This document shows, piece after piece, positions 261 through 38,317 of a DNA stretch of 64,000 nucleotides (the first letter of the stretch is position 1; each line of letters begins with the position of its first letter). Source of the DNA: Trypanosoma brucei (Eukaryota). Location of the stretch: contig CM000207.1 of the NCBI GenBank assembly GCA_000002445.1, positions 512,001 to 576,000 of the forward strand, in the 5' to 3' direction. Under the pieces are notes generated by a model, which ran no database searches, was not told where the DNA came from, and was given only the letters and a program-made list of their open reading frames with translations. A program made the translations under genes and the position numbers.

Positions 261-845
261 TCATCTTAGCAAATAGAGCGATGAAGTTCTCGGAAATTTG
301 CATACTTTCAAGCGGGCATGGAAGGGCCGCTCCCCGCCATCATCATGCGAGTGGTCGACAATGAATGTTACCACAAGAATATCAGTAAGTTTCAGCTCCA
401 GCTGAAGAATACGACCAATATCGAGTCCACATCCCTCGCTAATATCCTCCTTGACGGCCTGCGCCACGAGATCCTTTTTCTCTTCTATCAAATTTGCCCA
501 ATCCGACATGCGAAACCGAATAGTATGTCTGGCAATTCGGTGCCCATTACCTGGTACGGCTGATTGTACAGACACGGAGGGCCTAGAACTACGACAGGAA
601 TCGGCGCATTCTTCTTCTACAGGCATCACGATCTTTTCCTTTGGAGGTGCCTTCTTTAATATTTTAAGACCTTGCGGGAATCTTTTCTTCAGCACGGTGA
701 CAGGAACACTTGGAGGGGCCTTCTCCTCTTCGACCAGTGGCGTATCATTCAGGCACTTGGACTCAGTTTCGAGATGACTGAGAATCCAACTTGGCATACG
801 GTGGCCACGGAGCGATGAGGCACATTCACCATCTGTGGACCCCAT
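261..845 (-). CDS. hypothetical protein (194 aa)
   Basis: Longest ORF in this interval and on the same strand as every other gene in the unit. ATG start verified at 843-845. No recognisable domain. Confidence 0.3.
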   Translation of the reverse strand: MGSTDGECASSLRGHRMPSWILSHLETESKCLNDTPLVEEEKAPPSVPVTVLKKRFPQGLKILKKAPPKEKIVMPVEEECADSCRSSRPSVSVQSAVPGNGHRIARHTIRFRMSDWANLIEEKKDLVAQAVKEDISEGCGLDIGRILQLELKLTDILVVTFIVDHSHDDGGERPFHARLKVCKFPRTSSLYLLR

Positions 846-6900: not shown

Positions 6901-9183
6901 TTAAGATGCCTGTTGCACAGATGCATCCTCACTGCCAAGTTCCTCAACATCATTGATACTTGGCTCATCGGCGCCCGGAGCGGCTCCAGCCGCAACGTCA
7001 TTGAAGCTCAGTTCCTCAAGTTCCGCACTCGGGAGTTTGTCTGCTGGATGTTCTGCCGCTGTGGGTGCCTCACCCTCAGGGCCCGGGATATCAGAGTTGG
7101 AACCATCTGATTTCGGGGAGTCACCACCACCCAATTGTTTCATCGTTCCCGCCAGCACTTGATCCCTTCTCACAGCGGATGCCTGTCTCGACGAAGTCTG
7201 CTGTTCTCTCCTCCCACCACGGTCAAAAAAATCATCAGCTGCTTCATTATAACCAAGCAGCGCATAACCGTAGCGCACAGCAGGATCATAGTCACACCGG
7301 ACTTCAGCAATTTCCACGCACGGTTTTCGATAATCTTCATCATCTGTATAGCCATAGTCCTCATCACCGAAGTCTTCCAAAGTCTCCACCAAACCGCTTC
7401 CGGCAAAGTTCAACTCCCACATCCTTTCGCGTCGCAACTGAACCAACCACTCGTCAATACGCAGCTTGCTCATTGATTTCGTCGTTCCACCAGTTAGAGA
7501 ATGGTAGAAGGCACAAACTGTTGGGAAGGCGCAACGCTCTAGCAACGCCTGGAGTTCCTCCTTAGGGGTGCTCTTATCGTGCTCCGTAGTGAACGACGCC
7601 TCCAGTGGGTAACCCTCAAAAGTTAGGTTGGTGAAATTCTCTTTCGGCAATCTGAGTGTCGCAGATGCGTCCTCCTTAAAAGCAGCGTCCAGATATTCAC
7701 GGTGCTCCTCATTATCAAGCACTTCCTGCCACTTATCTCCAGTGAAAAATATGTGCAGATCGGAGTACACTGTGTTCTCAATCCGGCGGCGCTTCTCCAG
7801 ATACAGTTTGTCACGACCAGCCTTCTCCAAGCAGCGGCGCCGCCACACCGTCCTTTCGTGTCGACGATCCACATCCGTGAGGAAGGCATCAAGTTGCCGC
7901 ATCTCCTCCTCATCATCTTCGGTGAACAACTCCTTCTTGCTGAGCTCCTCCATGCGTAACTGCAGTTCGCGCTTCTCCTGGTCATCCCGTTCCTCGGCAG
8001 CGAAGAGAGCCTCAAGTTCGTCAATGTCGTGCAGGTCGTTGACGGTGCGAACTGTCTGCTGCATCTTCAGTACTTCTTCAGGTTGTAGTTGAACATAGAC
8101 GGGAATCTCCTTACCCAGGAGCGTCTTGCTTTCCTTCGGCCCAAAAACAAGTAAAACGCTGTCGAGTGAAACAATATCACTCACAACGCGACCGTTCGTT
8201 GTGCGTTGTACGTAGCATCCTTCAACATTGATAGGTTCCTCTTCATCATTTAGTAGATTAAGTGGTTCTTCACCAATCAAAGCCTGCTTCTTTTCGGAAA
8301 TTTGCACCCCTAACATAGCAATCATCTCACGCAGTCCGTTGACCTCGGTGATAAGAAGAGCTTGTTCTTGGAGTTGAGCGAAGCAACCATCAACGACGCG
8401 TTCCTCCGCCTCCCGAGCTCTTGAACACGCCATCTGCACATTCAGCCACCTCCTAATAACAACTGGAAGTGGAGCACCTTGTAGCGCCTGTGAAGATGCG
8501 CCCTTTCTCTTGCTTTCTTTCAGCGATTCGGCGGGGACCAACGCAAGCTCATTCTTTATCTTCTTCCGTTGCAGTTTCGACAGCGGTGCGACCGTGCAGT
8601 CAAGTTCCATTATCCGCCCAACAAAATCACTTTGACGCATGACAATCTGCATGCTTTCCCAACTTCCATTATGATCCTCTTGTAGGGCAATCATGAGCGC
8701 GCGGACAAGTGAAAACAGTTCCTCAGATGGTCGACCCGCTGAACGTAATTCCCTCCAACTGCGCGCGGGTACTTGTTCAATCGCGGCGCGAACTTGATCA
8801 AGCTCCACCATTTGCTGACGAGTGAACGCCGCTGCAATGGCCTGTTTTTCTTGAGTTACCTCACGGGCACGGTAGAGCCGTTCAGAAGAACGATCCTCAT
8901 CCTCCACCAGCTGCTGGTATTGCTGTTGGAGCGCTTTCAGCTCGTTCAGCCCATCAAGACGATCCTGCTGCACCGCAAGTTCACCCAGTTTTTCGTCATA
9001 CGGTTCAAACCCACCAGGCACGGCATCGACACGATCGAACAATTCGACACGAACGTGCTGACTTGTGGGCAGTCCGATAACACGAGCAAGAGTATTGCTC
9101 CACTCATAATCACCGCCAATCCGTTCCAAGCAAATGTAGTCACTTACATTGACCTCCAAACACGATCTGTTCATTCCCGTCAT
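6901..9183 (-). CDS. dynein-MTBD-like (stalk/microtubule-binding-domain-like) coiled-coil protein, paralog A (760 aa) with acidic C-terminal tail
   Basis: ATG at 9181-9183. Residues ~143-265 align to the dynein heavy-chain MTBD pattern (WRELRSAGRPSEELFSLVRALMIALQED..W.SMQIVMRQSDF..RIMELD ... GAPLPVVIRRWLNVQMA). Coiled-coil segments flank this domain. Residues ~478-562 form one F.G..W..VL...AF module, the same module that is repeated in the giant neighbour. The C-terminal tail is D/E-rich (DEDYGYTDDEDY...). Confidence 0.7.
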   Translation of the reverse strand: MTGMNRSCLEVNVSDYICLERIGGDYEWSNTLARVIGLPTSQHVRVELFDRVDAVPGGFEPYDEKLGELAVQQDRLDGLNELKALQQQYQQLVEDEDRSSERLYRAREVTQEKQAIAAAFTRQQMVELDQVRAAIEQVPARSWRELRSAGRPSEELFSLVRALMIALQEDHNGSWESMQIVMRQSDFVGRIMELDCTVAPLSKLQRKKIKNELALVPAESLKESKRKGASSQALQGAPLPVVIRRWLNVQMACSRAREAEERVVDGCFAQLQEQALLITEVNGLREMIAMLGVQISEKKQALIGEEPLNLLNDEEEPINVEGCYVQRTTNGRVVSDIVSLDSVLLVFGPKESKTLLGKEIPVYVQLQPEEVLKMQQTVRTVNDLHDIDELEALFAAEERDDQEKRELQLRMEELSKKELFTEDDEEEMRQLDAFLTDVDRRHERTVWRRRCLEKAGRDKLYLEKRRRIENTVYSDLHIFFTGDKWQEVLDNEEHREYLDAAFKEDASATLRLPKENFTNLTFEGYPLEASFTTEHDKSTPKEELQALLERCAFPTVCAFYHSLTGGTTKSMSKLRIDEWLVQLRRERMWELNFAGSGLVETLEDFGDEDYGYTDDEDYRKPCVEIAEVRCDYDPAVRYGYALLGYNEAADDFFDRGGRREQQTSSRQASAVRRDQVLAGTMKQLGGGDSPKSDGSNSDIPGPEGEAPTAAEHPADKLPSAELEELSFNDVAAGAAPGADEPSINDVEELGSEDASVQQAS

Positions 9184-9802
9184 TTACCTCAATACTCGCG
9201 TATGGTTTACTCCACGTTGACACGCGTGGTCACTACCCTCGCAGCCACGTGACGCGCACGAGGAGTTTTAACAATAAAAACTTGATAACTCTCTCCTCTG
9301 CTACTTACACTCTCAAGTAAAAAATTAACACAAACTACTTCCTACCTATTACAGTCAGTGATATGCTTAAAAAGATTAATACCTTTATTCTCTTTTCCTC
9401 TTGTCCTCAGGTTTACAGGAAAATACGAAAGGAATCAATCAATCAATCAACATATAAAGAGGATCAGCATCAACACGCATGCAACAACATGATCATCCAC
9501 GAAAAAACATCACCAAAATCACGAGCAGCCGCAGCTACAATACACACACACAAACACACAGATGCGCAAAAACGTACACCGATACCACCTTTCTATATAT
9601 GTCATAAAACAAGCAGCAACAAAAAAGCAACAGAAAAGACACAAACGCACACAAACACACAGAAATTTAAAAATGTTAAAAAACAAATCCACATAAAAAA
9701 CAGCAACAATATATATGCAAAACAGCACAATCAGCACCAACGTACAGAAGCAATATAAAATATACAAACAACAAAAGCTACACACAAAAAGTCAGTAAAG
9801 CA
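7470..9802 (-). repeat. segmental tandem duplication, copy 1 (2.73 kb period): gene A 5' 1.7 kb plus 0.6 kb upstream flank
   Basis: Near-identical to 10210-12535. Offset is 2733 bp at the gene starts (9183 vs 11916). The flank 9184-9802 matches 11917-12535. Confidence 0.9.
8193..8991 (-). other. dynein stalk/MTBD-like domain within paralog A (equivalent region in paralog B at about 10930-11725)
   Basis: Same motif order as in the giant protein. The Trp marking the start of the domain is at residue 143 in both proteins. Confidence 0.55.
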
Positions 9803-10176
9803 AATTAATACGTCATAAACACATAAAACAAACAGCGTAATTGCCGACACATGACGTCACCACAAAGAAGCCGAACCAGATCCAGTGGTAAAGGAGAAAT
9901 CCCATGAATTAGGGTGGCAAACCAAAGATACAAGCAAGAAAGGTGTATAAAGATTGGATACACTTCCAACGCTAACACCATCTAACTGTGAGAAAACAAT
10001 CAGAGGTGCAATTCAATAAGAAATCGCCTGCAGCAGGTAAATAGCATTTTAAAAATGAAAATGCAAAATTAACAAATGAAAGGTTGCAAAGTTACGTAAA
10101 ACTGTTAAACTACAAGCGGTATTTAGGAATAGAAAAAAAAAATTACGACACAACGATAAAGAAACTTTTCAAGGAA

Positions 10177-11916
10177 CTATCCATCAACGTCCTCCCCTTC
10201 CACTGATTCCGTCGTTCCACCAGTTAGAGAATGGTAGAAGGCACAAACTGTTGGGAAGGCGCAACGCTCTAGCAACGCCTGGAGTTCCTCCTTAGGGGTG
10301 CTCTTATCGTGCTCCGTAGTGAACGACGCCTCCAGTGGGTAACCCTCAAAAGTTAGGTTGGTGAAATTCTCTTTCGGTAATCTGAGTGTCGCAGATGCGT
10401 CCTCCTTAAAAGCAGCGTCCAGATATTCACGGTGCTCCTCATTATCAAGCACTTCCTGCCACTTATCTCCAGTGAAAAATATGTGCAGATCGGAGTACAC
10501 TATGTTCTCAATCCGGCGGCGCTTCTCCAGATACAGTTTGTCACGACCAGCCTTCTCCAAGCAGCGGCGCCGCCACACCGTCCTTTCGTGTCGACGATCC
10601 ACATCCGTGAGGAAGGCATCAAGTTGCCGCATCTCCTCCTCATCATCTTCGGTGAACAACTCCTTCTTGCTGAGCTCCTCCATGCGTAACTGCAGTTCGC
10701 GCTTCTCCTGGTCATCCCGTTCCTCGGCAGCGAAGAGAGCCTCAAGTTCGTCAATGTCGTACAGGTCGTTGACGGTGCGAACTGTCTGCTGCATCTTCAG
10801 TACTTCTTCAGGTTGTAGTTGAACATAGACGGGAATCTCCTTACCCAGGAGCGTCTTGCTTTCCTTCGGCCCAAAAACAAGTAAAACGCTGTCGAGTGAA
10901 ACAATATCACTCACAACGCGACCGTTCGTTGTGCGTTGTACGTAGCATCCTTCAACATTGATAGGTTCCTCTTCATCATTTAGTAGATTAAGTGGTTCTT
11001 CACCAATCAAAGCCTGCTTCTTTTCGGAAATTTGCACCCCTAACATAGCAATCTTCCCACGCAGTCCGTTGACCTCGGACAGCAGCGCAGCTATTCGGTC
11101 ATGTTTCACAACCAATCGATCAGCGACGCGTTCCTCCGCCTCCCGAGCTCTTGAACACGCCATCTGCACATTCAGCCACCTCCTAATAACAACTGGAAGT
11201 GGAGCACCGCGCAACAATTTAGGGAATGAGTCACTCTTCCCTCTACGTTCTTTCAGCGATTCGGCGGGGACCAACGCAAGCTCGTTCTTTATCTTCTTCC
11301 GTTGCAGTTTCGACAGCGGTGCGACCGTGCAGTCAAGTTCCATTATCCGCCCAACAAAATCACTTTGACGCATGACAATCTGCATGCTTTCCCAACTTCC
11401 ATTATGATCCTCTTGTAGGGCAATCATGAGCGCGCGGACAAGTGAAAACAGTTCCTCAGAAGGATTGTTTATATTCCTAATAATCCTCCAACTGCGCGCG
11501 GGTACTTGTTCAATCGCGGCGCGAACTTGATCAAGCTCCACCATTTGCTGACGAGTGAACGCCGCTGCAATGGCCTGTTTTTCTTGAGTTACCTCACGGG
11601 CACGGCAGAGCCGTTCAGAAGAACGATCCTCATCCTCCACCAGCTGCTGGTATTGCTGTTGGAGCGCTTTCAGCTCGTTCAGCCCATCAAGACGATCCTG
11701 CTGCACCGCAAGTTCACCCAGTTTTTCGGCATACGGTTCAAACCCACCAGGCACGGCATCGACACGATCGAACAATTCGACACGAACGTGCTGACTTGTG
11801 GGCAGTCCGATAACACGAGCAAGAGTATTGCTCCACTCATAATCACCGCCAATCCGTTCCAAGCAAATGTAGTCACTTACATTGACCTCCAAACACGATC
11901 TGTTCATTCCCGTCAT
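10177..11916 (-). CDS. dynein-MTBD-like protein, paralog B (579 aa; tandem duplicate of A lacking the acidic tail)
   Basis: ATG at 11914-11916. About 99% nt identity to gene A over most of its length, with three short divergent patches. Homology to A ends near 10210, so B terminates early (…TGGTTESVEGEDVDG*) and has its own 3' flank (9803-10209). Confidence 0.6.
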   Translation of the reverse strand: MTGMNRSCLEVNVSDYICLERIGGDYEWSNTLARVIGLPTSQHVRVELFDRVDAVPGGFEPYAEKLGELAVQQDRLDGLNELKALQQQYQQLVEDEDRSSERLCRAREVTQEKQAIAAAFTRQQMVELDQVRAAIEQVPARSWRIIRNINNPSEELFSLVRALMIALQEDHNGSWESMQIVMRQSDFVGRIMELDCTVAPLSKLQRKKIKNELALVPAESLKERRGKSDSFPKLLRGAPLPVVIRRWLNVQMACSRAREAEERVADRLVVKHDRIAALLSEVNGLRGKIAMLGVQISEKKQALIGEEPLNLLNDEEEPINVEGCYVQRTTNGRVVSDIVSLDSVLLVFGPKESKTLLGKEIPVYVQLQPEEVLKMQQTVRTVNDLYDIDELEALFAAEERDDQEKRELQLRMEELSKKELFTEDDEEEMRQLDAFLTDVDRRHERTVWRRRCLEKAGRDKLYLEKRRRIENIVYSDLHIFFTGDKWQEVLDNEEHREYLDAAFKEDASATLRLPKENFTNLTFEGYPLEASFTTEHDKSTPKEELQALLERCAFPTVCAFYHSLTGGTTESVEGEDVDG

Positions 11917-12535
11917 TTACCTCAATACTCGCGTATGGTTTACTCCACGTTGACACGCGTGGTCACTACCCTCGCAGCCACGTGACGCGCACGAGGAGTT
12001 TTAACAATAAAAACTTGATAACTCTCTCCTCTGCTACTTACACTCTCAAGTAAAAAATTAACACAAACTACTTCCTACCTATTACAGTCAGTGATATGCT
12101 TAAAAAGATTAATACCTTTATTCTCTTTTCCTCTTGTCCTCAGGTTTACAGGAAAATACGAAAGGAATCAATCAATCAATCAACATATAAAGAGGATCAG
12201 CATCAACACGCATGCAACAACATGATCATCCACGAAAAAACATCACCAAAATCACGAGCAGCCGCAGCTACAATACACACACACAAACACACAGATGCGC
12301 AAAAACGTACACCGATACCACCTTTCTATATATGTCATAAAACAAGCAGCAACAAAAAAGCAACAGAAAAGAAACAAACGCACACAAACACACAGAAATT
12401 TAAAAATGTTAAAAAACAAATCCACATAAAAAAAAGCAACAATATATATGCAAAACAGCACAATCAGCACCAACGTACAGAAGCAATATAAAATATACAA
12501 ACAACAAAAGCTACACACAAAAAGTCAATAAAGCA
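10210..12535 (-). repeat. segmental tandem duplication, copy 2 (gene B plus flank); flank copy abuts the 3' end of the giant ORF
   Basis: See copy 1. The flank copy ends at about 12535, where the 600-bp repeat array sequence begins. The giant ORF's TGA (12525-12527) lies inside the flank-derived sequence. Confidence 0.9.
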
Positions 12536-30500: not shown

Positions 30501-33500
30501 TACCGATGACTCCCGTGGTCTAGATTCATACAGCATCCACACAGCAGTGTATGGACATTCATTAAGACGCTCATCAATATCATCCTTCTTTAGGTTGTGT
30601 GGTGGGGTTATGGTAAATTCAAGTTTTAGCATTTCCTCGCTGTAACTCACCACCAAGTCCTGCACCTGTTCCTCATTAAGTTGCAACTGAGCAGCCGTTT
30701 CTTTGGTAAAGGCACTTACGACATCAGGTTTCCTCTTCTCCAAAACATAATCCCAGTCCTCACCCTCAAATTCCACGTGGTGTTGCGTAACCGTTCCTGT
30801 TGCAGAAGATGAATCCTTCATCATAGCCGCACGTGCAGCGGAAGCACGTGGCACATATAGTGACCACATCTCAGAGAAGGGACATGCAGCAAGGGTACTT
30901 AATATATCAGCATCATTTAATGAGCACCCAATGACTTTATAATCAATCAACAGACTTCCGAGTCGGCAATCAATGATAACCACCTGCTGTGGAGAGACAC
31001 CGAGAACACGCGCAGCGTCATTACGGAATGCGTTCTCCAACCCTTCACGATCACCACTAAGCACAAGATCCCAGTCATCTCCCTCAAATTTTTCTGTCAA
31101 TACCGATGACTCCCGTGGTCTAGATTCATACAGCATCCACACAGCAGTGTATGGACATTCATTAAGACGCTCATCAACATCATCCTTCTTTAGGTTGTGT
31201 GGTGGGGTTATGGTAAATTCAAGTTTTAGCATTTCCTCGCTGTAACTCACCACCAAGTCCTGCACCTGTTCCTCATTAAGTTGCAACTGAGCAGCCGTTT
31301 CTTTGGTAAAGGCACTTACGACATCAGGTTTCCTCTTCTCCAAAACATAATCCCAGTCCTCACCCTCAAATTCCACGTGGTGTTGCGTAACCGTTTCTGT
31401 TGCAGAAGATGAATCCTTCATCATAGCCGCACGTGCAGCGGAAGCACGTGGCACATATAGTGACCACATCTCAGAGAAGGGGCATGCAGCAAGGGTACTT
31501 AATATATCAGCATCATTTAATGAGCACCCAATGACTTTATAATCAATCAACAGACTTCCGAGTCGGCAATCAATGATAACCACCTGCTGTGGAGAGACAC
31601 CGAGAACACGCGCAGCGTCATTACGGAATGCGTTCTCCAACCCTTCACGATCACCACTAAGCACAAGATCCCAATCATCTCCCTCAAATTTTTCTGTCAA
31701 TACCGATGACTCCCGTGGTCTAGATTCATACAGCATCCACACAGCAGTGTATGGACATTCATTAAGACGCTCATCAATATCATCCTTCTTTAGGTTGTGT
31801 GGTGGGGTTATGGTAAATTCAAGTTTTAGCATTTCCTCGCTGTAACTCACCACCAAGTCCTGCACCTGTTCCTCATTAAGTTGCAACTGAGCAGCCGTTT
31901 CTTTGGTAAAGGCACTTACGACATCAGGTTTCCTCTTCTCCAAAACATAATCCCAGTCCTCACCCTCAAATTCCATGTGGTGTTGCGTAACCGTTCCTGT
32001 TGCAGAAGATGAATCCTTCATCATAGCCGCACGTGCAGCGGAAGCACGTGGCACATATAGTGACCACATCTCAGAGAAGGGACATGCAGCAAGGGTACTT
32101 AATATATCAGCATCATTTAATGAGCTCCCAATGACTTTATAATCAATCAACAGACTTCCGAGTCGGCAATCAATGATAACCACCTGCTGTGGAGAGACAC
32201 CGAGAACACGCGCAGCGTCATTACGGAATGCGTTCTCCAACCCTTCACGATCACCACTAAGCACAAGATCCCAATCATCTCCCTCAAATTTTTCTGTCAA
32301 TACCGATGACTCCCGTGGTCTAGATTCATACAGCATCCACACAGCAGTGTATGGACATTCATTAAGACGCTCATCAATATCATCCTTCTTTAGGTTGTGT
32401 GGTAGGGTTATGGTAAATTCAAGTTTTAGCATTTCCTCGCTGTAACTCACCACCAAGTCCTGCACCTGTTCCTCATTAAGTTGCAACTGAGCAGCCGTTT
32501 CTTTGGTAAAGGCACTTACGACATCAGGTTTCCTCTTCTCCAAAACATAATCCCAGTCCTCACCCTCAAATTCCACGTGGTGTTGCGTAACCGTTTCTGT
32601 TGCAGAAGATGAATCCTTCATCATAGCCGCACGTGCAGCGGAAGCACGTGGCACATATAGTGACCACACCTCAGAGAAGGGACATGCAGCAAGGGTACTT
32701 AATATATCAGCATCATTTAATGAGCACCCAATGACTTTATAATCAATCAACAGACTTCCGAGTCGGCAATCAATGATAACCACCTGCTGTGGAGAGACAC
32801 CGAGAACACGCGCAGCGTCATTACGGAATGCGTTCTCCAACCCTTCACGATCACCACTAAGCACAAGATCCCAGTCATCTCCCTCAAATTTTTCTGTCAA
32901 TACCGATGACTCCCGTGGTCTAGATTCATACAGCATCCACACAGCAGTGTATGGACATTCATTAAGACGCTCATCAATATCATCCTTCTTTAGGTTGTGT
33001 GGTGGGGTTATGGTAAATTCAAGTTTTAGCATTTCCTCGCTGTAACTCACCACCAAGTCCTGCACCTGTTCCTCATTAAGTTGCAACTGAGCAGCCGTTT
33101 CTTTGGTAAAGGCACTTACGACATCAGGTTTCCTCTTCTCCAAAACATAATCCCAGTCCTCACCCTCAAATTCCACGTGGTGTTGCGTAACCGTTTCTGT
33201 TGCAGAAGATGAATCCTTCATCATAGCCGCACGTGCAGCGGAAGCACGTGGCACATATAGTGACCACACCTCAGAGAAGGGACATGCAGCAAGGGTACTT
33301 AATATATCAGCATCATTTAATGAGCACCCAATGACTTTATAATCAATCAACAGACTTCCGAGTCGGCAATCAATGATAACCACCTGCTGTGGAGAGACAC
33401 CGAGAACACGCGCAGCGTCATTACGGAATGCGTTCTCCAACCCTTCACGATCACCACTAAGCACAAGATCCCAATCATCTCCCTCAAATTTCTCTGTCAA

Positions 33501-36500
33501 TACCGATGACTCCCGTGGTCTAGATTCATACAGCATCCACACAGCAGTGTATGGACATTCATTAAGACGCTCATCAACATCATCCTTCTTTAGGTTGTGT
33601 GGTAGGGTTATGGTAAATTCAAGTTTTAGCATTTCCTCGCTGTAACTCACCACCAAGTCCTGCACCTGTTCCTCATTAAGTTGCAACTGAGCAGCCGTTT
33701 CTTTGGTAAAGGCACTTACGACATCAGGTTTCCTCTTCTCCAAAACATAATCCCAGTCCTCACCCTCAAATTCCACGTGGTGTTGCGTAACCGTTTCTGT
33801 TGCAGAAGATGAATCCTCCATCATAGCCGCACGTGCAGCGGAAGCACGTGGCACATATAGTGACCACACTTCAGAGAAGGGACATGCAGCAAGGGTACTT
33901 AATATATCAGCATCATTTAATGAGCACCCAATGACTTTATAATCAATCAACAGACTTCCGAGTCGGCAATCAATGATAACCACCTGCTGTGGAGAGACAC
34001 CGAGAGCACGCGCAGCGTCATTACGGAATGCGTTCTCCAACCCTTCACGATCACCACTAAGCACAAGATCCCAATCATCTCCCTCAAATTTCTCTGTCAA
34101 TACCGATGACTCCCGTGGTCTAGATTCATACAGCATCCACACAGCAGTGTATGGACATTCATTAAGACGCTCATCAACATCATCCTTCTTTAGGTTGTGT
34201 GGTAGGGTTATGGTAAATTCAAGTTTTAGCATTTCCTCGCTGTAACTCACCACCAAGTCCTGCACCTGTTCCTCATTAAGTTGCAACTGAGCAGCCGTTT
34301 CTTTGGTAAAGGCACTTACGACATCAGGTTTCCTCTTCTCCAAAACATAATCCCAGTCCTCACCCTCAAATTCCACGTGGTGTTGCGTAACCGTTTCTGT
34401 AGCAGAAGATGAATCCTCCATCATAGCCGCACGTGCAGCGGAAGCACGTGGCACATATAGTGACCACACTTCAGAGAAGGGACATGCAGCAAGGGTACTT
34501 AATATATCAGCATCATTTAATGAGCACCCAATGACTTTATAATCAATCAACAGACTTCCGAGTCGGCAATCAATGATAACCACCTGCTGTGGAGAGACAC
34601 CGAGAGCACACGCAGCGTCATTACGGAATGCGTTCTCCAACCCTTCACGATCACCACTAAGCACAAGATCCCAGTCATCTCCCTCAAATTTTTCTGTCAG
34701 TACCGATGACTCCCGTGGTCTAGATTCATACAGCATCCACACAGCAGTGTATGGACATTCATTAAGACGCTCATCAATATCATCCTTCTTTAGGTTGTGT
34801 GGTGGGGTTATGGTAAATTCAAGTTTTAGCATTCCCTCGCTGTAACTCACGACCAAGTCCTGCACCTGTTCCTCATTAAGTTGCAACTGAGCAGCCGTTT
34901 CTTCGATAAAGGCATTCACGACTTCATTTTTTTTGTTGTGAATCGAAGTGTACCATTCTTTTCCTGCGAAATGTTTGGTGTGTTTTTTACTTTCTAATAT
35001 TAATTTGTTGTAATTTACTGGGTTTTTTTCGTTATAGAAGTTCCAAAGCCGTGGGTATTGGTGCTGAAGTATTTGGTGTTTTATTCTCTCCGGTGACTTT
35101 TTATTGTCGTATACGCTGTATTCGACTTGTAGATTGTGATCAGTTGCGTGCATGTTAGTGACAACGATTTTTTCGGTTTTCACTTCCAGTGCTGTTGATG
35201 TTTCGTGCAAAAATATGTCGTGTATTTTTTCTTTATCGTGGAGCATTTTGTATTTCCATTCTGTACCCATGAAGCTTCTCTTGTATTTAATTTTTTTGTA
35301 CGCGGTATATTTTTTGTAAATGGCGGTCGTTTGTGGGTATTCGTAGCTGTGTATGTTGTTGCCAGAATCATTGCTTTTCTTTATTCCCTTGCTCACAACA
35401 TATTCGACGTGAAGTCTGCTTGTTGCTAATATTTTTGTTACATATACATCGGCCGTACTGGCTAACCAGTGAAGATTGTAAATATCTGTTTCTGCTGCTT
35501 TTTTCACTTCATACTTGTGGTCATCAGCAATAGTTTTCCAGTCGTCACCTCTCAACGTGAAATTATGCAGTGACATATTTTTGCATTCTTCTTCATATAG
35601 TCTTCTGAGCAATGGGTAGTTGTATTCTGCGACTGCAGCCCTCAAGTCGTTTTGTGTCATAGAGTTGTCATGCTGTAATTCCGCCTGAATTATCAAGCAG
35701 TTTTGTTCCTCGTTGTAAGAAGAATGAGTGACTATTACATTACTTTTGGGCACACCCACCGCTGTTCCTGTCTCGACACAAAATGTGTGCTCAATGTCAG
35801 CTTGCCTAAAGTAGAGGATAACCTCCCAATCTTTCCCTGCGTATTCACGGCGCACCACACCGATAGTACCAGAAGGGATATTATCTACGGAGTGCGTTGT
35901 GGGTATAAATATCCCCTCGCTAATGTCCATCTCTTCTTGTTCTGATTTCCCCCGTCTACTGTTCGCTAACCGCTGCATCATAACGGTATCAAGATATCTA
36001 ATACAGGGTTCCTCGAGAGAGTACAGGTTATCCCCCCCTAGCAGTTCTTGTGAACCAAGTACCACGAGCACATTCTTTCGCAAAACGATGATGCTATAGT
36101 TTGTTGGCACCCACGTGTAGAAGGCAGGTAGCAGATATTCTTTGTTCTCCGCCCCGGCAAAACTCTGCCGGTACCTCTCTAGCGCTAAGTCTTTCGGGGC
36201 CGAGTGTTCTTCTGCCCTTGCGGGCTGCATCGAATCCCCCTCTTGCGTCTCCGTCTCTTCACCACCCCCAAATCCCATCTGCCTGTAAGCACGCAATTCC
36301 TCATTAACCTTGTCCAGTTGGGTTTGATACATCCCCATAGAGTACTGCTGCTTCTGAATGTCATTCATAACGTCAGCCAATACGCGCTTTTGTTCTTCCA
36401 TAATATCCTCTGCAGTAACCTTCTCCTTCACTGCATGGCATATGTCTAATTGAGCGAGCGTCCAGTAGTATATGGGTCCCATTGCCCTGCTGCCGTCTAC

Positions 36501-37169
36501 AGCCCGATCGTAGCAGAAGCTACGCCTACTCACGCAATCCCGCAAAATGAAATTACATCTCTCAATAGACAGTTCTTCGTCTGCAGAGAATTCTAGAATG
36601 CGCGCGCGAAAGTGCTGATGGCGTAACACACTCTGCATTTGTGGCCACGTTTTGGCTCCATCCTCACTCAGTAACAACATCACCGCGCGGAGGATAGTTG
36701 TTACCATCTTGGGTGGTGAACGATACGACTTCAGCTCATTCCAATGGTTGTACGAAATCGACTCAACATCGCAGCGGGCAGCAGACACTGCGGCGCGGGA
36801 CTGCATCAAGTGCGCCTCAGCTGCTGAACTAGTTCTCATCAATTCAGCTCGTGCGTTGCGAAGAGACTCGGTAAGCTCGGCCGCTCGCCGTAAGCACTGT
36901 TCAAACCCCTTCTTCGATTCTTCTACTTTACGCAGCATAGCGCCTCTCTCCCCAATGACGGTGGTGCCGCTGTTATCATCATCAACCAATTCCCACCTCC
37001 GCTCCCACAGCTGTATTTCAGCATCCTGGGCGTAAGGGGCTGACACTACCTGCCCCAGCGTCCAGTTGATTCCTCCACTATCGTCATTGGTCAGTACCAA
37101 CGCAACCACATCACCCGGTTTAATGGACCGAATGTCTGTACTGCACGTTAACGTTCTCTCTTGCATCAT
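12525..37169 (-). CDS. giant repetitive protein (8214 aa): N-terminal dynein-MTBD-like stalk domain followed by 37 tandem 200-aa repeats
   Basis: Uninterrupted 24,645-nt ORF. ATG-ATG at 37164-37169, preceded by an in-frame stop at 37215-37217. TGA stop at 12525-12527. The N-terminal ~760 aa are unique and include the MTBD-like region (aa ~143-253: WNELKSYRSPPKMVTTILRAVMLLLSEDGAKTWPQMQSVLRHQHFRARILEFSADEELS...AMGPIYYWTLAQL). The remainder is a 600-bp repeat array. Confidence 0.85.
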   Translation of the reverse strand: MMQERTLTCSTDIRSIKPGDVVALVLTNDDSGGINWTLGQVVSAPYAQDAEIQLWERRWELVDDDNSGTTVIGERGAMLRKVEESKKGFEQCLRRAAELTESLRNARAELMRTSSAAEAHLMQSRAAVSAARCDVESISYNHWNELKSYRSPPKMVTTILRAVMLLLSEDGAKTWPQMQSVLRHQHFRARILEFSADEELSIERCNFILRDCVSRRSFCYDRAVDGSRAMGPIYYWTLAQLDICHAVKEKVTAEDIMEEQKRVLADVMNDIQKQQYSMGMYQTQLDKVNEELRAYRQMGFGGGEETETQEGDSMQPARAEEHSAPKDLALERYRQSFAGAENKEYLLPAFYTWVPTNYSIIVLRKNVLVVLGSQELLGGDNLYSLEEPCIRYLDTVMMQRLANSRRGKSEQEEMDISEGIFIPTTHSVDNIPSGTIGVVRREYAGKDWEVILYFRQADIEHTFCVETGTAVGVPKSNVIVTHSSYNEEQNCLIIQAELQHDNSMTQNDLRAAVAEYNYPLLRRLYEEECKNMSLHNFTLRGDDWKTIADDHKYEVKKAAETDIYNLHWLASTADVYVTKILATSRLHVEYVVSKGIKKSNDSGNNIHSYEYPQTTAIYKKYTAYKKIKYKRSFMGTEWKYKMLHDKEKIHDIFLHETSTALEVKTEKIVVTNMHATDHNLQVEYSVYDNKKSPERIKHQILQHQYPRLWNFYNEKNPVNYNKLILESKKHTKHFAGKEWYTSIHNKKNEVVNAFIEETAAQLQLNEEQVQDLVVSYSEGMLKLEFTITPPHNLKKDDIDERLNECPYTAVWMLYESRPRESSVLTEKFEGDDWDLVLSGDREGLENAFRNDAACALGVSPQQVVIIDCRLGSLLIDYKVIGCSLNDADILSTLAACPFSEVWSLYVPRASAARAAMMEDSSSATETVTQHHVEFEGEDWDYVLEKRKPDVVSAFTKETAAQLQLNEEQVQDLVVSYSEEMLKLEFTITLPHNLKKDDVDERLNECPYTAVWMLYESRPRESSVLTEKFEGDDWDLVLSGDREGLENAFRNDAARALGVSPQQVVIIDCRLGSLLIDYKVIGCSLNDADILSTLAACPFSEVWSLYVPRASAARAAMMEDSSSATETVTQHHVEFEGEDWDYVLEKRKPDVVSAFTKETAAQLQLNEEQVQDLVVSYSEEMLKLEFTITLPHNLKKDDVDERLNECPYTAVWMLYESRPRESSVLTEKFEGDDWDLVLSGDREGLENAFRNDAARVLGVSPQQVVIIDCRLGSLLIDYKVIGCSLNDADILSTLAACPFSEVWSLYVPRASAARAAMMKDSSSATETVTQHHVEFEGEDWDYVLEKRKPDVVSAFTKETAAQLQLNEEQVQDLVVSYSEEMLKLEFTITPPHNLKKDDIDERLNECPYTAVWMLYESRPRESSVLTEKFEGDDWDLVLSGDREGLENAFRNDAARVLGVSPQQVVIIDCRLGSLLIDYKVIGCSLNDADILSTLAACPFSEVWSLYVPRASAARAAMMKDSSSATETVTQHHVEFEGEDWDYVLEKRKPDVVSAFTKETAAQLQLNEEQVQDLVVSYSEEMLKLEFTITLPHNLKKDDIDERLNECPYTAVWMLYESRPRESSVLTEKFEGDDWDLVLSGDREGLENAFRNDAARVLGVSPQQVVIIDCRLGSLLIDYKVIGSSLNDADILSTLAACPFSEMWSLYVPRASAARAAMMKDSSSATGTVTQHHMEFEGEDWDYVLEKRKPDVVSAFTKETAAQLQLNEEQVQDLVVSYSEEMLKLEFTITPPHNLKKDDIDERLNECPYTAVWMLYESRPRESSVLTEKFEGDDWDLVLSGDREGLENAFRNDAARVLGVSPQQVVIIDCRLGSLLIDYKVIGCSLNDADILSTLAACPFSEMWSLYVPRASAARAAMMKDSSSATETVTQHHVEFEGEDWDYVLEKRKPDVVSAFTKETAAQLQLNEEQVQDLVVSYSEEMLKLEFTITPPHNLKKDDVDERLNECPYTAVWMLYESRPRESSVLTEKFEGDDWDLVLSGDREGLENAFRNDAARVLGVSPQQVVIIDCRLGSLLIDYKVIGCSLNDADILSTLAACPFSEMWSLYVPRASAARAAMMKDSSSATGTVTQHHVEFEGEDWDYVLEKRKPDVVSAFTKETAAQLQLNEEQVQDLVVSYSEEMLKLEFTITPPHNLKKDDIDERLNECPYTAVWMLYESRPRESSVLTEKFEGDDWDLVLSGDREGLENAFRNDAARVLGVSPQQVVIIDCRLGSLLIDYKVIGCSLNDADILSTLAACPFSEVWSLYVPRASAARAAMMEDSSSATETVTQHHVEFEGEDWDYVLEKRKPDVVSAFTKETAAQLQLNEEQVQDLVVSYSEEMLKLEFTITLPHNLKKDDVDERLNECPYTAVWMLYESRPRESSVLTEKFEGDDWDLVLSGDREGLENAFRNDAARALGVSPQQVVIIDCRLGSLLIDYKVIGCSLNDADILSTLAACPFSEMWSLYVPRASAARAAMMEDSSSATETVTQHHVEFEGEDWDYVLEKRKPDVVSAFTKETAAQLQLNEEQVQDLVVSYSEEMLKLEFTITLPHNLKKDDIDERLNECPYTAVWMLYESRPRESSVLTEKFEGDDWDLVLSGDREGLENAFRNDAARALGVSPQQVVIIDCRLGSLLIDYKVIGCSLNDADILSTLAACPFSEVWSLYVPRASAARAAMMKDSSSATETVTQHHVEFEGEDWDYVLEKRKPDVVSAFTKETAAQLQLNEEQVQDLVVSYSEEMLKLEFTITLPHNLKKDDIDERLNECPYTAVWMLYESRPRESSVLTEKFEGDDWDLVLSGDREGLENAFRNDAARVLGVSPQQVVIIDCRLGSLLIDYKVIGCSLNDADILSTLAACPFSEVWSLYVPRASAARAAMMEDSSSATETVTQHHMEFEGEDWDYVLEKRKPDVVSAFTKETAAQLQLNEEQVQDLVVSYSEEMLKLEFTITLPHNLKKDDIDERLNECPYTAVWMLYESRPRESSVLTEKFEGDDWDLVLSGDREGLENAFRNDAACALGVSPQQVVIIDCRLGSLLIDYKVIGCSLNDADILSTLAACPFSEMWSLYVPRASAARAAMMKDSSSATETVTQHHVEFEGEDWDYVLEKRKPDVVSAFTKETAAQLQLNEEQVQDLVVSYSEEMLKLEFTITPPHNLKKDDIDERLNECPYTAVWMLYESRPRESSVLTEKFEGDDWDLVLSGDREGLENAFRNDAARALGVSPQQVVIIDCRLGSLLIDYKVIGCSLNDADILSTLAACPFSEVWSLYVPRASAARAAMMEDSSSATETVTQHHVEFEGEDWDYVLEKRKPDVVSAFTKETAAQLQLNEEQVQDLVVSYSEEMLKLEFTITLPHNLKKDDVDERLNECPYTAVWMLYESRPRESSVLTEKFEGDDWDLVLSGDREGLENAFRNDAARVLGVSPQQVVIIDCRLGSLLIDYKVIGCSLNDADILSNLAACPFSEMWSLYVPRASAARAAMMEDSSSATETVTQHHVEFEGEDWDYVLEKRKPDVVSAFTKETAAQLQLNEEQVQDLVVSYSEEMLKLEFTITPPHNLKKDDIDERLHECPYTAVWMLYEPRPRESSVLTEKFEGDDWDLVLSGDREGLENAFRNDAARVLGVSPQQVVIIDCRLGSLLIDYKVIGCSLNDADILSTLAACPFSEMWSLYVPRASAARAAMMEDSSSATETVTQHHVEFEGEDWDYVLEKRKPDVVSAFTKETAAQLQLNEEQVQDLVVSYSEEMLKLEFTITLPHNLKKDDIDERLNECPYTAVWMLYESRPRESSVLTEKFEGDDWDLVLSGDREGLENAFRNDAARVLGVSPQQVVIIDCRLGSLLIDYKVIGSSLNDADILSTLAACPFSEMWSLYVPRASAARAAMMKDSSSATGTVTQHHMEFEGEDWDYVLEKRKPDVVSAFTKETAAQLQLNEEQVQDLVVSYSEEMLKLEFTITLPHNLKKDDVDERLNECPYTAVWMLYESRPRESSVLTEKFEGDDWDLVLSGDREGLENAFRNDAARVLGVSPQQVVIIDCRLGSLLIDYKVIGCSLNDADILSTLAACPFSEMWSLYVPRASAARAAMMKDSSSATETVTQHHVEFEGEDWDYVLEKRKPDVVSAFTKETAAQLQLNEEQVQDLVVSYSEEMLKLEFTITPPHNLKKDDIDERLNECPYTAVWMLYESRPRESSVLTEKFEGDDWDLVLSGDREGLENAFRNDAARVLGVSPQQVVIIDCRLGSLLIDYKVIGCSLNDADILSTLAACPFSEVWSLYVPRASAARAAMMKDSSSATETVTQHHVEFEGEDWDYVLEKRKPDVVSAFTKETAAQLQLNEEQVQDLVVSYSEEMLKLEFTITPPHNLKKDDIDERLNECPYTAVWMLYESRPRESSVLTEKFEGDDWDLVLSGDREGLENAFRNDAARVLGVSPQQVVIIDCRLGSLLIDYKVIGCSLNDADILSTLAACPFSEMWSLYVPRASAARAAMMKDSSSATETVTQHHVEFEGEDWDYVLEKRKPDVVSAFTKETAAQLQLNEEQVQDLVVSYSEEMLKLEFTITLPHNLKKDDIDERLNECPYTAVWMLYESRPRESSVLTEKFEGDDWDLVLSGDREGLENAFRNDAARVLGVSPQQVVIIDCRLGSLLIDYKVIGCSLNDSDILSTLAACPFSEMWSLYVPRASAARAAMMKDSSSATETVTQHHVEFEGEDWDYVLEKRKPDVVSAFTKETAAQLQLNEEQVQDLVVSYSEEMLKLEFTITPPHNLKKDDIDERLNECPYTAVWMLYESRPRESSVLTEKFEGDDWDLVLSGDREGLENAFRNDAARVLGVSPQQVVIIDCRLGSLLIDYKVIGCSLNDADILSTLAACPFSEVWSLYVPRASAARAAMMKDSSSATETVTQHHVEFEGEDWDYVLEKRKPDVVSAFTKETAAQLQLNEEQVQDLVVSYSEEMLKLEFTITPPHNLKKDDIDERLNECPYTAVWMLYESRPRESSVLTEKFEGDDWDLVLSGDREGLENAFRNDAARVLGVSPQQVVIIDCRLGSLLIDYKVIGRSLNDSDILSTLAACPFSEMWSLYVPRASAARAAMMKDSSSATGTVTKHYVGFEGEDWDYVLEKRKPDVVSAFTKETAAQLHLNEEQVQDLVLSYSEEMLKLEFTITPPHNLKKDDIDERLNECPYTAVWMLYESRPRESSVLTEKFEGDDWDLVLSGDREGLENAFRNDAARVLGVSPQQVVIIDCRLGSLLIDYKVIGCSLNDADILSTLAACPFSEMWSLYVPRASAARAAMMKDSSSATETVTQHHVEFEGEDWDYVLEKRKPDVVSAFTKETAAQLQLNEEQVQDLVVSYSEEMLKLEFTITPPHNLKKDDIDERLHECPYTAVWMLYEPRPRESSVLTEKFEGDDWDLVLSGDREGLENAFRNDAARVLGVSPQQVVIIDCRLGSLLIDYKVIGSSLNDADILSTLAACPFSEVWSLYVPRASAARAAMMEDSSSATETVTQHHVEFEGEDWDYVLEKRKPDVVSAFTKETAAQLQLNEEQVQDLVVSYSEEMLKLEFTITLPHNLKKDDIDERLNECPYTAVWMLYESRPRESSVLTEKFEGDDWDLVLSGDREGLENAFRNDAARVLGVSPQQVVIIDCRLGSLLIDYKVIGCSLNDADILSTLAACPFSEVWSLYVPRASAARAAMMKDSSSATETVTQHHVEFEGEDWDYVLEKRKPDVVSAFTKETAAQLQLNEEQVQDLVVSYSEEMLKLEFTITLPHNLKKDDVDERLNECPYTAVWMLYESRPRESSVLTEKFEGDDWDLVLSGDREGLENAFRNDAARALGVSPQQVVIIDCRLGSLLIDYKVIGCSLNDADILSTLAACPFSEVWSLYVPRASAARAAMMKDSSSATETVTQHHVEFEGEDWDYVLEKRKPDVVSAFTKETAAQLQLNEEQVQDLVVSYSEEMLKLEFTITLPHNLKKDDVDERLNECPYTAVWMLYESRPRESSVLTEKFEGDDWDLVLSGDREGLENAFRNDAARALGVSPQQVVIIDCRLGSLLIDYKVIGCSLNDADILSNLAACPFSEVWSLYVPRASAARAAMMEDSSSATETVTQHHVEFEGEDWDYVLEKRKPDVVSAFTKETAAQLQLNEEQVQDLVVSYSEEMLKLEFTITPPHNLKKDDIDERLHECPYTAVWMLYEPRPRESSVLTEKFEGDDWDLVLSGDREGLENAFRNDAARVLGVSPQQVVIIDCRLGSLLIDYKVTGCSLNDADILSTLAACPFSEVWSLYVPRASAARAAMMEDSSSATETVTQHHVEFEGEDWDYVLEKRKPDVVSAFTKETAAQLQLNEEQVQDLVVSYSEEMLKLEFTITLPHNLKKDDVDERLNECPYTAVWMLYESRPRESSVLTEKFEGDDWDLVLSGDREGLENAFRNDAACALGVSPQQVVIIDCRLGSLLIDYKVIGCSLNDADILSTLAACPFSEVWSLYVPRASAARAAMMEDSSSATETVTQHHVEFEGEDWDYVLEKRKPDVVSAFTKETAAQLQLNEEQVQDLVVSYSEEMLKLEFTITLPHNLKKDDIDERLNECPYTAVWMLYESRPRESSVLTEKFEGDDWDLVLSGDREGLENAFRNDAARALGVSPQQVVIIDCRLGSLLIDYKVIGCSLNDADILSTLAACPFSEMWSLYVPRASAARAAMMEDSSSATETVTQHHVEFEGEDWDYVLEKRKPDVVSAFTKETAAQLQLNEEQVQDLVVSYSEEMLKLEFTITLPHNLQKDDIDERLHECPYTAVWMLYEPRPRESSVLTEKFEGDDWDLVLSGDREGLENAFRNDAACALGVSPQQVVIIDCRLGSLLIDYKVIGCSLNDADILSTLAACPFSEVWSLYVPRASAARAAMMEDSSSATETVTQHHVEFEGEDWDYVLEKRKPDVVSAFTKETAAQLQLNEEQVQDLVVSYSEEMLKLEFTITLPHNLKKDDVDERLNECPYTAVWMLYESRPRESSVLTEKFEGDDWDLVLSGDREGLENAFRNDAARVLGVSPQQVVIIDCRLGSLLIDYKVIGCSLNDADILSTLAACPFSEVWSLYVPRASAARAAMMKDSSSATETVTQHHVEFEGEDWDYVLEKRKPDVVSAFTKETAAQLQLNEEQVQDLVVSYSEEMLKLEFTITLPHNLKKDDIDERLNECPYTAVWMLYESRPRESSVLTEKFEGDDWDLVLSGDREGLENAFRNDAARVLGVSPQQVVIIDCRLGSLLIDYKVIGSSLNDADILSTLAACPFSEMWSLYVPRASAARAAMMEDSSSATETVTQHHVEFEGEDWDYVLEKRKPDVVSAFTKETAAQLQLNEEQVQDLVVSYSEEMLKLEFTITLPHNLKKDDIDERLNECPYTAVWMLYESRPRESSVLTEKFEGDDWDLVLSGDREGLENAFRNDAARVLGVSPQQVVIIDCRLGSLLIDYKVIGSSLNDADILSTLAACPFSEVWSLYVPRASAARAAMMEDSSSATETVTQHHVEFEGEDWDYVLEKRKPDVVSAFTKETAAQLQLNEEQVQDLVVSYSEEMLKLEFTITLPHNLKKDDIDERLNECPYTAVWMLYESRPRESSVLTEKFEGDDWDLVLSGDREGLENAFRNDAARVLGVSPQQVVIIDCRLGSLLIDYKVIGSSLNDADILSTLAACPFSEMWSLYVPRASAARAAMMKDSSSATETVTQHHVEFEGEDWDYVLEKRKPDVVSAFTKETAAQLQLNEEQVQDLVVSYSEEMLKLEFTITLPHNLKKDDIDERLNECPYTAVWMLYESRPRESSVLTEKFEGDDWDLVLSGDREGLENAFRNDAARVLGVSPQQVVIIDCRLGSLLIDYKVIGCSLNDADILSTLAACPFSEVWSLYVPRASAARAAMMKDSSSATETVTKHYVGFEGEDWDYVLEKRKPDVVSAFTKETAAQLHLNEEQVQDLVLSYSEEMLKLEFTITPPHNLKKDDIDERLNECPYTAVWMLYELRPRESSVLTEKFEGDDWDLVLSGDREGLENAFRNDAARVLGVSPQQAVIIDCRLGSLLIDYKVIGCSLNDADILSTLAACPFSEMWSLYVPRASAARAAMMKDSSSATGTVTKHYVGFEGEDWDYVLEKRKPDVVSAFTKETAAQLHLNEEQVQDLVVSYSEEMLKLEFTITPPHNLKKDDIDESLHECPYTAVWMLY
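12529..34895 (-). repeat. tandem array of 37 x 600-bp coding repeats (>95% identical), internal to the giant ORF
   Basis: Exact 600-bp periodicity. It is visible as identical antisense 90-aa ORFs at 12973+600k, k=0..36. Each unit encodes two ~100-aa modules (FEGEDWDYVLEKRKPDVVSAFTKE... and FEGDDWDLVLSGDREGLENAFRND...). Variation is limited to a few biallelic sites shuffled among units. Confidence 0.95.
34896..35700 (-). repeat. degenerate A/T-rich ancestral copies of the ~100-aa module preceding the homogenised array
   Basis: The protein shows F.G.EW/F.GDDW modules (FAGKEWYTSIHNKKNEVVNAF..., FMGTEWKYKMLHDKEKIHDIF..., TLRGDDWKTIADDHKYEV...). At nt level they share little identity with the array, and the sequence is T-rich on the + strand. 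Confidence 0.6.
36270..36917 (-). other. dynein heavy chain stalk/MTBD-like domain (CC1-MTBD-CC2) within the giant ORF
   Basis: By-eye alignment to the canonical dynein MTBD ([55 protein letters not shown]...ACGPMVKWAIAQL) gives near-colinear matches. Helix-rich coiled-coil flanks lie on both sides. Confidence 0.6.
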
Positions 37170-38268: not shown

Positions 38269-38281
38269 GTGTGTATTGTAT

Positions 38282-38316
<35 letters not shown>
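38269..38316. repeat. (TG)n microsatellite
   Basis: gtgtgtattgtatgtgtatg(tg)15 by direct reading. Confidence 0.95.

Positions 38317-38317
<1 letters not shown>

Follow-up and report, generated by a model that had tools for sequence, protein, structure and literature searches.

Since 1993 Gb4 has been used to mark the posterior end, and it is described as a marker of microtubule plus ends and of the posterior, at the tips of the subpellicular microtubules (PMC13544905); its Leishmania mexicana orthologue lies on the peripheral microtubules and is biased towards the posterior. The nucleolar protein TbNOP86 joins the anaphase spindle and is required for mitotic progression (PMC6144804), and TbNOP66 and TbNOP86 have largely identical coding sequences and different 3' untranslated regions (3'UTRs; PMC11405848). 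Recent papers treat two questions about these proteins as open: the function of the Gb4 repeats is described as unknown (PMC8625193) and the mechanistic role of TbNOP86, an essential protein, "has not been elucidated" (PMC11569230). Pfam-B 506 has been reported as a domain of nine cytoskeleton-associated T. brucei proteins, GB4 among them (Sunter 2015, PMC4406125). Here we analysed a 64-kb stretch of Trypanosoma brucei DNA (contig CM000207.1, positions 512,001 to 576,000; called the window below) in which the genes for Gb4, TbNOP66 and TbNOP86 (hereafter NOP66 and NOP86) lie next to one another. Comparison of the encoded sequences indicates that the three proteins descend from one ancestral gene encoding a collinear cassette of ~540 residues, at the heart of which stands a dynein-type stalk hairpin without a motor.

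The minus strand carries all the long open reading frames (ORFs) of the window, including the three family ORFs, each of which has an ATG start. An earlier reading of the bare sequence, referred to below as the original prediction, had placed the three ORFs side by side on one strand, which was found to be correct. The GB4 ORF, composed of 2256 nt of unique 5' sequence followed by 37 x 600 nt, equals the published GB4 (PMC5397161, PMC3545838). Tb09.160.1180, labelled 'nucleolar protein' (PMC2771046), is NOP66 and the following gene is NOP86: the two genes are adjacent, 93.5% identical over 572 aa, different at their 3' ends, and encode proteins of ~66 and ~86 kDa. Moreover, the published TbNOP86 quantitative PCR primers have a unique match at 7159-7229, within the tail that NOP66 lacks.

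The shared cassette and its dynein-type hairpin

The region that had been called 'MTBD-like', after dynein's microtubule-binding domain (MTBD), deserves a stronger name. By phmmer, Foldseek and structural superposition it is a genuine homologue of the dynein stalk and MTBD. When residues 1-440 of Gb4 were compared by phmmer with all PDB sequences, the best match was the stalk/MTBD of mouse cytoplasmic dynein-1 (E=2e-13, residues 80-273), and 52 of the 56 matches listed were dynein heavy-chain or dynein MTBD chains. NOP86 matched the L. tarentolae dynein heavy chain 9y6s_7G (E=2e-6, aa 84-225), so that the best PDB matches differ, cytoplasmic dynein-1 for Gb4 and a heavy chain from a flagellar doublet-microtubule structure for NOP86. 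The AlphaFold2 (AF2) models of Gb4 1-311 and 1-540 contain a first coiled coil (CC1), six short helices and a second coiled coil (CC2), the globular part having a predicted local distance difference test score (pLDDT) of ~90. The arrangement, an antiparallel hairpin with a six-helix tip, is that of the dynein stalk/MTBD fold. Searched by Foldseek, the Gb4 model returned the dynein stalk 5AYH as top match (E=3e-10), and MTBD-only structures superpose on it at 2.0-3.2 A, with template modelling (TM) scores of 0.75-0.78.

The proteins nevertheless are not dynein heavy chains, as they possess the stalk only, without AAA+ ring, linker or tail. Pfam searches detected no AAA+ or dynein motor family in NOP86, in NOP66 or in the first 1500 aa of Gb4; FAZ1_cons was the only family found in NOP86 and NOP66, and a hidden Markov model (HMM) of the module assigned the remainder of Gb4 to FAZ1_cons modules. 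The MTBD is basic, with an isoelectric point (pI) of 9.0 in Gb4 and 10.1 in NOP86, compared to ~4.5 for the whole proteins. Between MTBD helices 5 and 6, proteins of the NOP86 lineage carry a K/R-rich insert (aa ~205-235 in NOP86) for which the Gb4 lineage has no counterpart. Phyre2 predictions of 'dynein stalk/motor' have been published for FAZ proteins (PMC7394968); they concern proteins other than Gb4 and NOP86 and were not used.

The hairpin is one part of a longer common architecture. In order, the cassette comprises a small beta N-domain, CC1, the six-helix globular domain, CC2, a short beta element and one FAZ1_cons module. Profiles built from seven Gb4-lineage and eight NOP86-lineage sequences aligned by hhalign over 478 collinear columns with a probability of 100% (E=3.7e-38), a result pointing to a single architecture held in common by descent. 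Taken region by region, the E values were 8.5e-7 for the N-domain, 7e-22 for the hairpin, 5e-6 for the element that follows CC2 and 8.9e-19 for the module; for both module and MTBD-like region, the profile-profile similarity on which the proposed family depends is thus far from an E value above 1. Single sequences gave the same relationship: NOP86 and Gb4 are 25.6% identical by BLASTP over 172 aa (residues 23-194 against 31-194, E=1e-13), and the NOP86 module is ~25% identical to each Gb4 repeat (E ~4e-5 each).

A Trp at residue 143 had been noted in all three ORFs. It is present in each, and it is invariant in the 15 sequences (15/15) of the two aligned lineages, in which most of the invariant columns of the cassette fall in the MTBD core. 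That the residue bears the identical number is partly luck because numbering hangs on the choice of start codon; database versions of the three ORFs differ by start codon or allele, and the NOP86 entry (757 aa) begins at Met4 of the 760-aa ORF, so that W143 becomes W140.

The resemblance of the N-terminal domains, also part of the original prediction, is weak when that region is taken alone but real. T. brucei Gb4 scored 9.5 bits against the NOP86-lineage profile, compared to 7.7 bits for the best of 1400 composition-preserving shuffles, and for most sequences the scores of the N-domain and of the post-CC2 element were above those of all 1400 shuffles. W36 is invariant in the N-domains of both lineages, and D20, L38, V41 and P45 are nearly so. 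In the AF2 model of Gb4 the N-domain strands span residues 20-28, 34-43 and 49-58 (pLDDT ~80). A disordered linker separates CC2 from the post-CC2 element, whose motif F-Y-x-W..PT..I-x-L-R-x-x-V-L-x-x-F-G is kept in both lineages. An antiparallel coiled coil would bring the N-domain next to the post-CC2 element at the hairpin base, where the two may form one base domain. The pLDDT of the N-domain rises from ~60-70 to ~80 once the post-CC2 element is included, in a model for which the alignment is also deeper.

In NOP86, the N-domain occupies aa ~10-52, the hairpin ~66-310, the beta element ~321-385, the module 472-561 and an acidic tail 572-760. NOP66 likewise has the N-domain, a hairpin at aa ~66-311 and a module at 473-562, and stops 8 residues past its divergence from NOP86.

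Proposed microtubule contact and its alternative

The MTBD is the predicted microtubule contact of both Gb4 and NOP86. In the mechanism that we propose, the basic MTBD would dock on the tubulin lattice in the dynein manner, and coiled coils of ~65-70 residues would keep it ~10 nm off a base to which N-domain and post-CC2 element both contribute. The one head of Gb4 would anchor a chain of 78 acidic globular modules of ~100 residues each, projecting at the posterior plus-end cap. NOP86 and NOP66 carry a single module, with the acidic tail as an addition in NOP86, and for the K/R-rich insert within the NOP86-lineage MTBD we propose a role in nuclear targeting. As mitosis is closed, nuclear NOP86 and NOP66 would meet microtubules only when the intranuclear spindle forms, which would explain the published shift of NOP86 from nucleolus to spindle. 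As there is no AAA ring, nothing would drive the affinity-switching sliding of the coiled coils that occurs in dynein, and the base probably locks the head in one state.

Taken together, a cassette of shared descent, bearing a motor-less dynein stalk as its microtubule contact and having the history set out in the next section, is the explanation that best accounts jointly for the observations, and we assign it a probability of about 75%. Several points weigh against it. T. brucei Gb4 and NOP86 are both under the gathering cut-off of Pfam PF12777 (24 bits): Gb4 reaches 20.7 bits (E=2.4e-4), and neither NOP86 nor NOP66 gives a match. Relatives do pass this cut-off, at 49.4 bits in T. congolense, 31.3 bits in Angomonas and 28.3 bits in L. 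major, and a PF12777 match is precomputed for the Gb4-like protein of T. congolense; the T. brucei entries are probably labelled FAZ1_cons only because PF12777 falls short in them. The NOP86 MTBD is the more diverged, its PDB match being confined to aa 84-225 and its helices 5 and 6 being separated by the insert. In Gb4, the two lysines that open helix 1 of the mouse MTBD (SIKKQH) are replaced (SISYNH). No usable published list of dynein MTBD contact residues was found, hence no claim of binding is made at the level of residues. The preference of Gb4 for plus ends is not accounted for, since dynein MTBDs bind along the lattice. Finally, both the composite base domain and the role of the NOP86 insert as a nuclear localisation signal are things that we infer.

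The alternative that survives best accepts the homology and disputes the function. The hairpin might be a true relic of a dynein stalk that now acts as a rigid spacer or dimerisation element, the attachment to microtubules being left to other parts (modules, acidic tail) or to partners. The incomplete retention of basic residues of mouse helix 1 in Gb4 would fit such a relic, and there are precedents for attachment by other parts, as MARP1/2 bind microtubules through their repeats (cited in PMC8625193) and the FAZ1_cons module is present in many cytoskeleton-associated proteins (PMC4406125). However, the parts to which binding would be handed over are strongly acidic, with a net charge of -21 per 200-aa repeat unit in Gb4 and of -25 in the NOP86 tail, and the MTBD is the only basic region; it is also the MTBD core that is the most conserved part of the cassette. 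Furthermore, the cassette is all that Gb4 and NOP86 have in common, yet both reach microtubule structures. We consider a relic of this kind unlikely.

Module array, tandem duplication and history of the locus

The module is Pfam PF23398 ('FAZ1, conserved domain', ~90 residues), formerly Pfam-B 506, for which the gathering cut-off is 27.5 bits. One copy had been predicted in NOP86 and one is present (aa 472-561, 58.2 bits, E=8e-16), but it is not a property of NOP86 alone, since NOP66 carries one as well (aa 473-562, 58.4 bits, E=7e-16). The database entry of NOP86 bears the automated name 'Flagellar attachment zone protein 1 conserved domain-containing protein'. In residues 1-1500 of Gb4, PF23398 matched 11 stretches (663 bits, E=1.5e-204). 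The original prediction of a large array in the giant protein holds, whereas its figure of about 75 copies has to be corrected to 78 by the module HMM, namely 4 diverged modules and 74 in the array. The first Gb4 module is predicted to fold as beta-alpha-beta-beta-alpha-alpha (AF2, pLDDT ~92), and the border between unique sequence and array runs through the fourth diverged module (aa 733-830). Each array unit contains a module of the FEGDDW type and one of the FEGEDW type, which are 28% identical to each other. The array was resolved with a lag-identity script, its 600-nt unit being above the 500-nt period limit of Tandem Repeats Finder: identity at a lag of 600 nt was 0.97-0.998, and the 37 + 37 motif starts are spaced exactly 200 aa apart. 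The stop codon of the GB4 ORF coincides with the end of a module. Matches of Gb4 to PqqF_C_3, HTH_28, DUF3079, VWA and other Pfam families included zero individually significant stretches and were rejected as an artefact, because weak scores are summed over dozens of identical repeats.

Gb4 orthologues differ from this array in copy number and in unit. Those of Porcisia, Phytomonas and two others have 15-24 modules with a median identity of 22-26%, organised partly in a three-module unit in Porcisia. In the parts of the genes covered, 29 modules (median 38%) were found in T. cruzi and 27 (median 33%) in T. melophagium, in both cases with a three-module unit of ~301-303 aa in which the module types follow the pattern 1-2-2. 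The 78 modules of T. brucei, by comparison, form a two-module unit of 200 aa whose copies are 97-99.8% identical at the DNA level. The three-module unit may be ancestral. Because the orthologues already carry 15-29 diverged modules, a many-module Gb4 is taken to be the ancestral state, and these alignments indicate that only the 37-fold near-identical array of T. brucei is recent, a two-module unit having been amplified and homogenised there. Module copy number and unit appear, on the same comparison, to have been reshaped by lineage-specific amplification and homogenisation.

The NOP66/NOP86 pair has a much shorter history, and self-comparison of the window points to a recent tandem duplication of ~2.3 kb. 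One copy covers most of the NOP86 coding sequence and 619 nt upstream, and the other the NOP66 coding sequence with its upstream DNA and 11 nt of the 3' end of GB4. The copies are 96.9% identical over 2329 nt (partner 10201-12524), a value that rises to 99.5% between 9184-9802 and 11917-12535. Within the block upstream of NOP86, 11 nt corresponding to the final codons and the stop of GB4 are retained. The 398 nt at 9803-10200, which hold the last 8 codons and the 3'UTR, are found only in the NOP66 copy and interrupt the duplication. The coding differences between NOP86 and NOP66 lie almost solely in three short, indel-rich patches, which fall on helix 1 of the MTBD, on the basic insert and on CC2. 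On the NOP86 side these patches are at 8728-8751, 8479-8514 and 8349-8393 (aa 145-152, 224-235 and 264-279), all within the hairpin. The pattern looks like mosaic gene conversion, or like selection for distinct microtubule or nuclear behaviour of the isoforms. The three genes had been described as a local three-gene family; they are true relatives, but because NOP86 and NOP66 are recent duplicates at 93.5% identity, the trio amounts to two old lineages.

These two lineages stand side by side in other trypanosomatids. In Porcisia hertigi, as in T. cruzi and T. melophagium, the giant FAZ1_cons gene has a NOP86 orthologue behind it on the same strand, and next in order stand SCO1 and then small FAZ1_cons genes. 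The order is the same in Angomonas deanei, except that upstream three short FAZ1_cons gene calls take the position of the one giant gene. The paralogues were thereby found at the syntenic position in all four species, and the order in the T. brucei window (Gb4, NOP66/86, SCO1, small module genes) agrees with it. As the small module genes follow SCO1 in these four trypanosomatids too, the conserved cluster of module genes is best counted as five genes. The conserved order indicates that the split between Gb4 and NOP86 and their adjacency are older than the trypanosomatid radiation.

The cassette also has relatives elsewhere. A profile of the N-domain and hairpin, searched against 1.84 billion representatives, retrieved 351 proteins. 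The best-scoring non-dynein matches belong to the Gb4 group, the NOP86 group, a third trypanosomatid group, a set with hairpin and module, and many further proteins, some of them from environmental eukaryote contigs; true dyneins rank under these. The third group consists of proteins of ~600-900 aa with N-domain and hairpin and no module (T. brucei Q57U59, 798 aa; T. cruzi, 803 aa; L. major Q4Q6D7, 627 aa; T. congolense, 907 aa). The T. brucei and T. cruzi members are annotated 'dynein heavy chain, cytosolic, putative' despite their small size and the absence of a motor. Hairpin and module without N-domain are combined in an Angomonas protein and in some Leishmaniinae proteins named 'kinetoplast-associated protein-like'. 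Two environmental eukaryote contigs, compact and apparently intron-less (ENA metagenome ERZ19399582, 1274-7393; Logan SRR7249135, 3001-8061), encode proteins of 1.7-2.0 kaa that open with N-domain and hairpin, 25-30% identical to trypanosomatid members. The cassette family may reach beyond trypanosomatids.

The original prediction had pictured a local family confined to its lineage, with a protein of one module growing into a giant by expansion from 1 to about 75 modules. The single module of NOP86 and NOP66 against the 78 of Gb4 is in keeping with this picture, and the near-identical T. brucei array does imply a recent amplification. But Gb4 orthologues of Leishmaniinae, Phytomonas, T. cruzi and T. 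melophagium, in the same syntenic position, have 15-29 detected modules that are mostly 22-38% identical, and the cassette recurs in further trypanosomatid paralogues and in the environmental contigs. The Gb4/NOP86 pair is at least trypanosomatid-wide and a third group with N-domain and hairpin exists, so the family is not lineage-specific; a single expansion is too simple where a many-module Gb4 is old and only the 37-fold array recent, and the data do not tell whether module number went from 1 to many or from many to 1. This scenario is very improbable. Still less credible is an artefact, either a dynein similarity made of coiled-coil compositional noise or an array and a NOP66/NOP86 pair made by assembly errors: long near-identical repeats are indeed difficult to assemble, but the dynein matches centre on the globular MTBD, on which MTBD-only structures superpose, GB4 mRNA has been imaged with probes jointly spanning the entire 24,645-nt ORF and the 8214-aa protein detected by mass spectrometry (PMC5397161, PMC3545838), and NOP66 and NOP86 differ both in their 3'UTRs and in their expression (PMC11405848).

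The features of the locus are collected in Table 1. Three neighbouring proteins (an importin-N protein, mt-SAF6 and deoxyhypusine hydroxylase) match entries of T. brucei TREU927 without a difference, which places the window on T. brucei chromosome 9. The 210-aa gene has in common with the 194-aa gene an N-terminal H.MP.W motif, and its module opens (VRFRGSGW) and is then degenerate. The lowest GC content of the window (0.35) is found at 38001-40000, upstream of GB4, in what is presumably a long 5'UTR or intergenic DNA.

Table 1. Genes, duplicated blocks and Gb4 regions in the window (window coordinates)
Feature	Position	Strand	Description	Identifier or basis
GB4	12525..37169	-	24,645 nt, 8214 aa, 928 kDa (computed 928.4)	Tb427tmp.160.1200 / Tb09.160.1200
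TbNOP66 (paralogue B)	10177..11916	-	579 aa, 66.5 kDa computed	Tb09.160.1180
TbNOP86 (paralogue A)	6901..9183	-	760-aa ORF, 86.2 kDa computed	Tb09.160.1160
Gb4 N-domain	36996..37142	-	aa ~10-58, three strands	AF2 and alignment
Gb4 stalk hairpin	36270..36950	-	CC1 aa 74-136, six-helix MTBD aa 140-228, CC2 aa 230-300	
Gb4 post-CC2 element	35958..36188	-	aa ~328-404: short helices, beta hairpin 352-373, helix	AF2, pLDDT 82-88
Gb4 diverged modules	34914..35846	-	aa 442-533, 540-592 (weak), 632-714	Module HMM
GB4 tandem array	12525..34913	-	37 units x 600 nt, two modules per unit	
Duplication copy 1	7471..9802	-	Most of NOP86 coding sequence and upstream DNA	
Duplication copy 2	10201..12535	-	NOP66 coding sequence and upstream DNA, into GB4 3' end	
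SCO1	3916-5076		Downstream of NOP86	
Second small gene	1726-2358	-	210 aa, downstream of SCO1	
Small FAZ1_cons gene	261..845	-	194 aa, one C-terminal module, aa 106-191	Pfam E=5e-12, 46 bits

Relation to known systems

The genes, the Pfam family of the module and the dynein stalk annotation of relatives in databases are already known. In the searchable literature, outside which the founding papers (Boucher 2007, Rindisbacher 1993) lie, neither the paralogy of Gb4 with NOP86/66 nor a dynein-type MTBD in either of them was found stated. It is tempting, although we hold it only tentatively, to see here a superfamily that has not been described before: microtubule-associated proteins without a motor, derived from a captured dynein stalk/MTBD hairpin that a small beta base closes. 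It would be present in trypanosomatids and possibly other euglenozoans, would include the ~800-aa 'DHC-like' proteins, and would have had its members sent to different microtubule populations, Gb4 to the subpellicular plus ends and NOP86/66 to the intranuclear spindle. If so, we know of no earlier case in which the microtubule-binding domain of dynein works apart from the motor.

If the proposed contact is true, a binding mechanism would be supplied for two long-known proteins, and the dynein-type hairpin would offer a concrete, mutable candidate binding site in each. A cortical cap protein and a nuclear mitotic protein are linked as paralogues by the shared cassette, and the dynein stalk would appear reusable as a stand-alone candidate microtubule-binding module. 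For dynein biology, these proteins would provide a natural MTBD fixed in one coiled-coil registry.

The closest described structure is the dynein stalk/MTBD (PF12777; mouse DYNC1H1, PDB 5AYH, 3ERR and 6RZB), with which Gb4 and NOP86 have in common the antiparallel CC1/CC2 hairpin, the six-helix tip, the P-P/NPP turn after helix 1, the hydrophobic core and a basic tip, at 22-28% identity. They differ from dynein by lacking the AAA+ ring, linker and tail, and by coiled coils of ~65-70 residues each, about two-thirds as long. At the hairpin base, the small beta N-domain and the post-CC2 element stand in place of dynein AAA4/AAA5, so that ATP could not power registry sliding in the dynein manner.

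Also related are the short trypanosomatid 'DHC-like' proteins of the third group (Q57U59, Q4Q6D7 and the 803-aa T. cruzi protein), in which N-domain and hairpin are N-terminal, the profile match starts at position ~10 and Pfam detects MT; the L. major protein is annotated 'Dynein heavy chain coiled coil stalk domain-containing protein'. By contrast with Gb4 and NOP86 they lack the FAZ1_cons module, and their genes lie at other places in the genome; identity to Gb4 and NOP86 is ~25-35% or less. No functional study was found for these third-group proteins.

Through the module, Gb4 and NOP86 are connected to the FAZ1_cons proteins (FAZ1, FAZ8, FLAM8, PFC20 and others; Sunter 2015, PMC4406125), all of which are cytoskeleton-associated. 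GB4 is present in the published list of nine Pfam-B 506 proteins, whereas NOP86 and NOP66 are absent from it. Lastly, MARP1/2, I/6 and WCB resemble Gb4 as acidic proteins of the subpellicular corset that are giant or rich in repeats (PMC8625193). In the MARPs it is the repeats that bind microtubules, whereas Gb4 has repeats that fold as acidic modules and, as its candidate binding site, one N-terminal domain of the dynein type.

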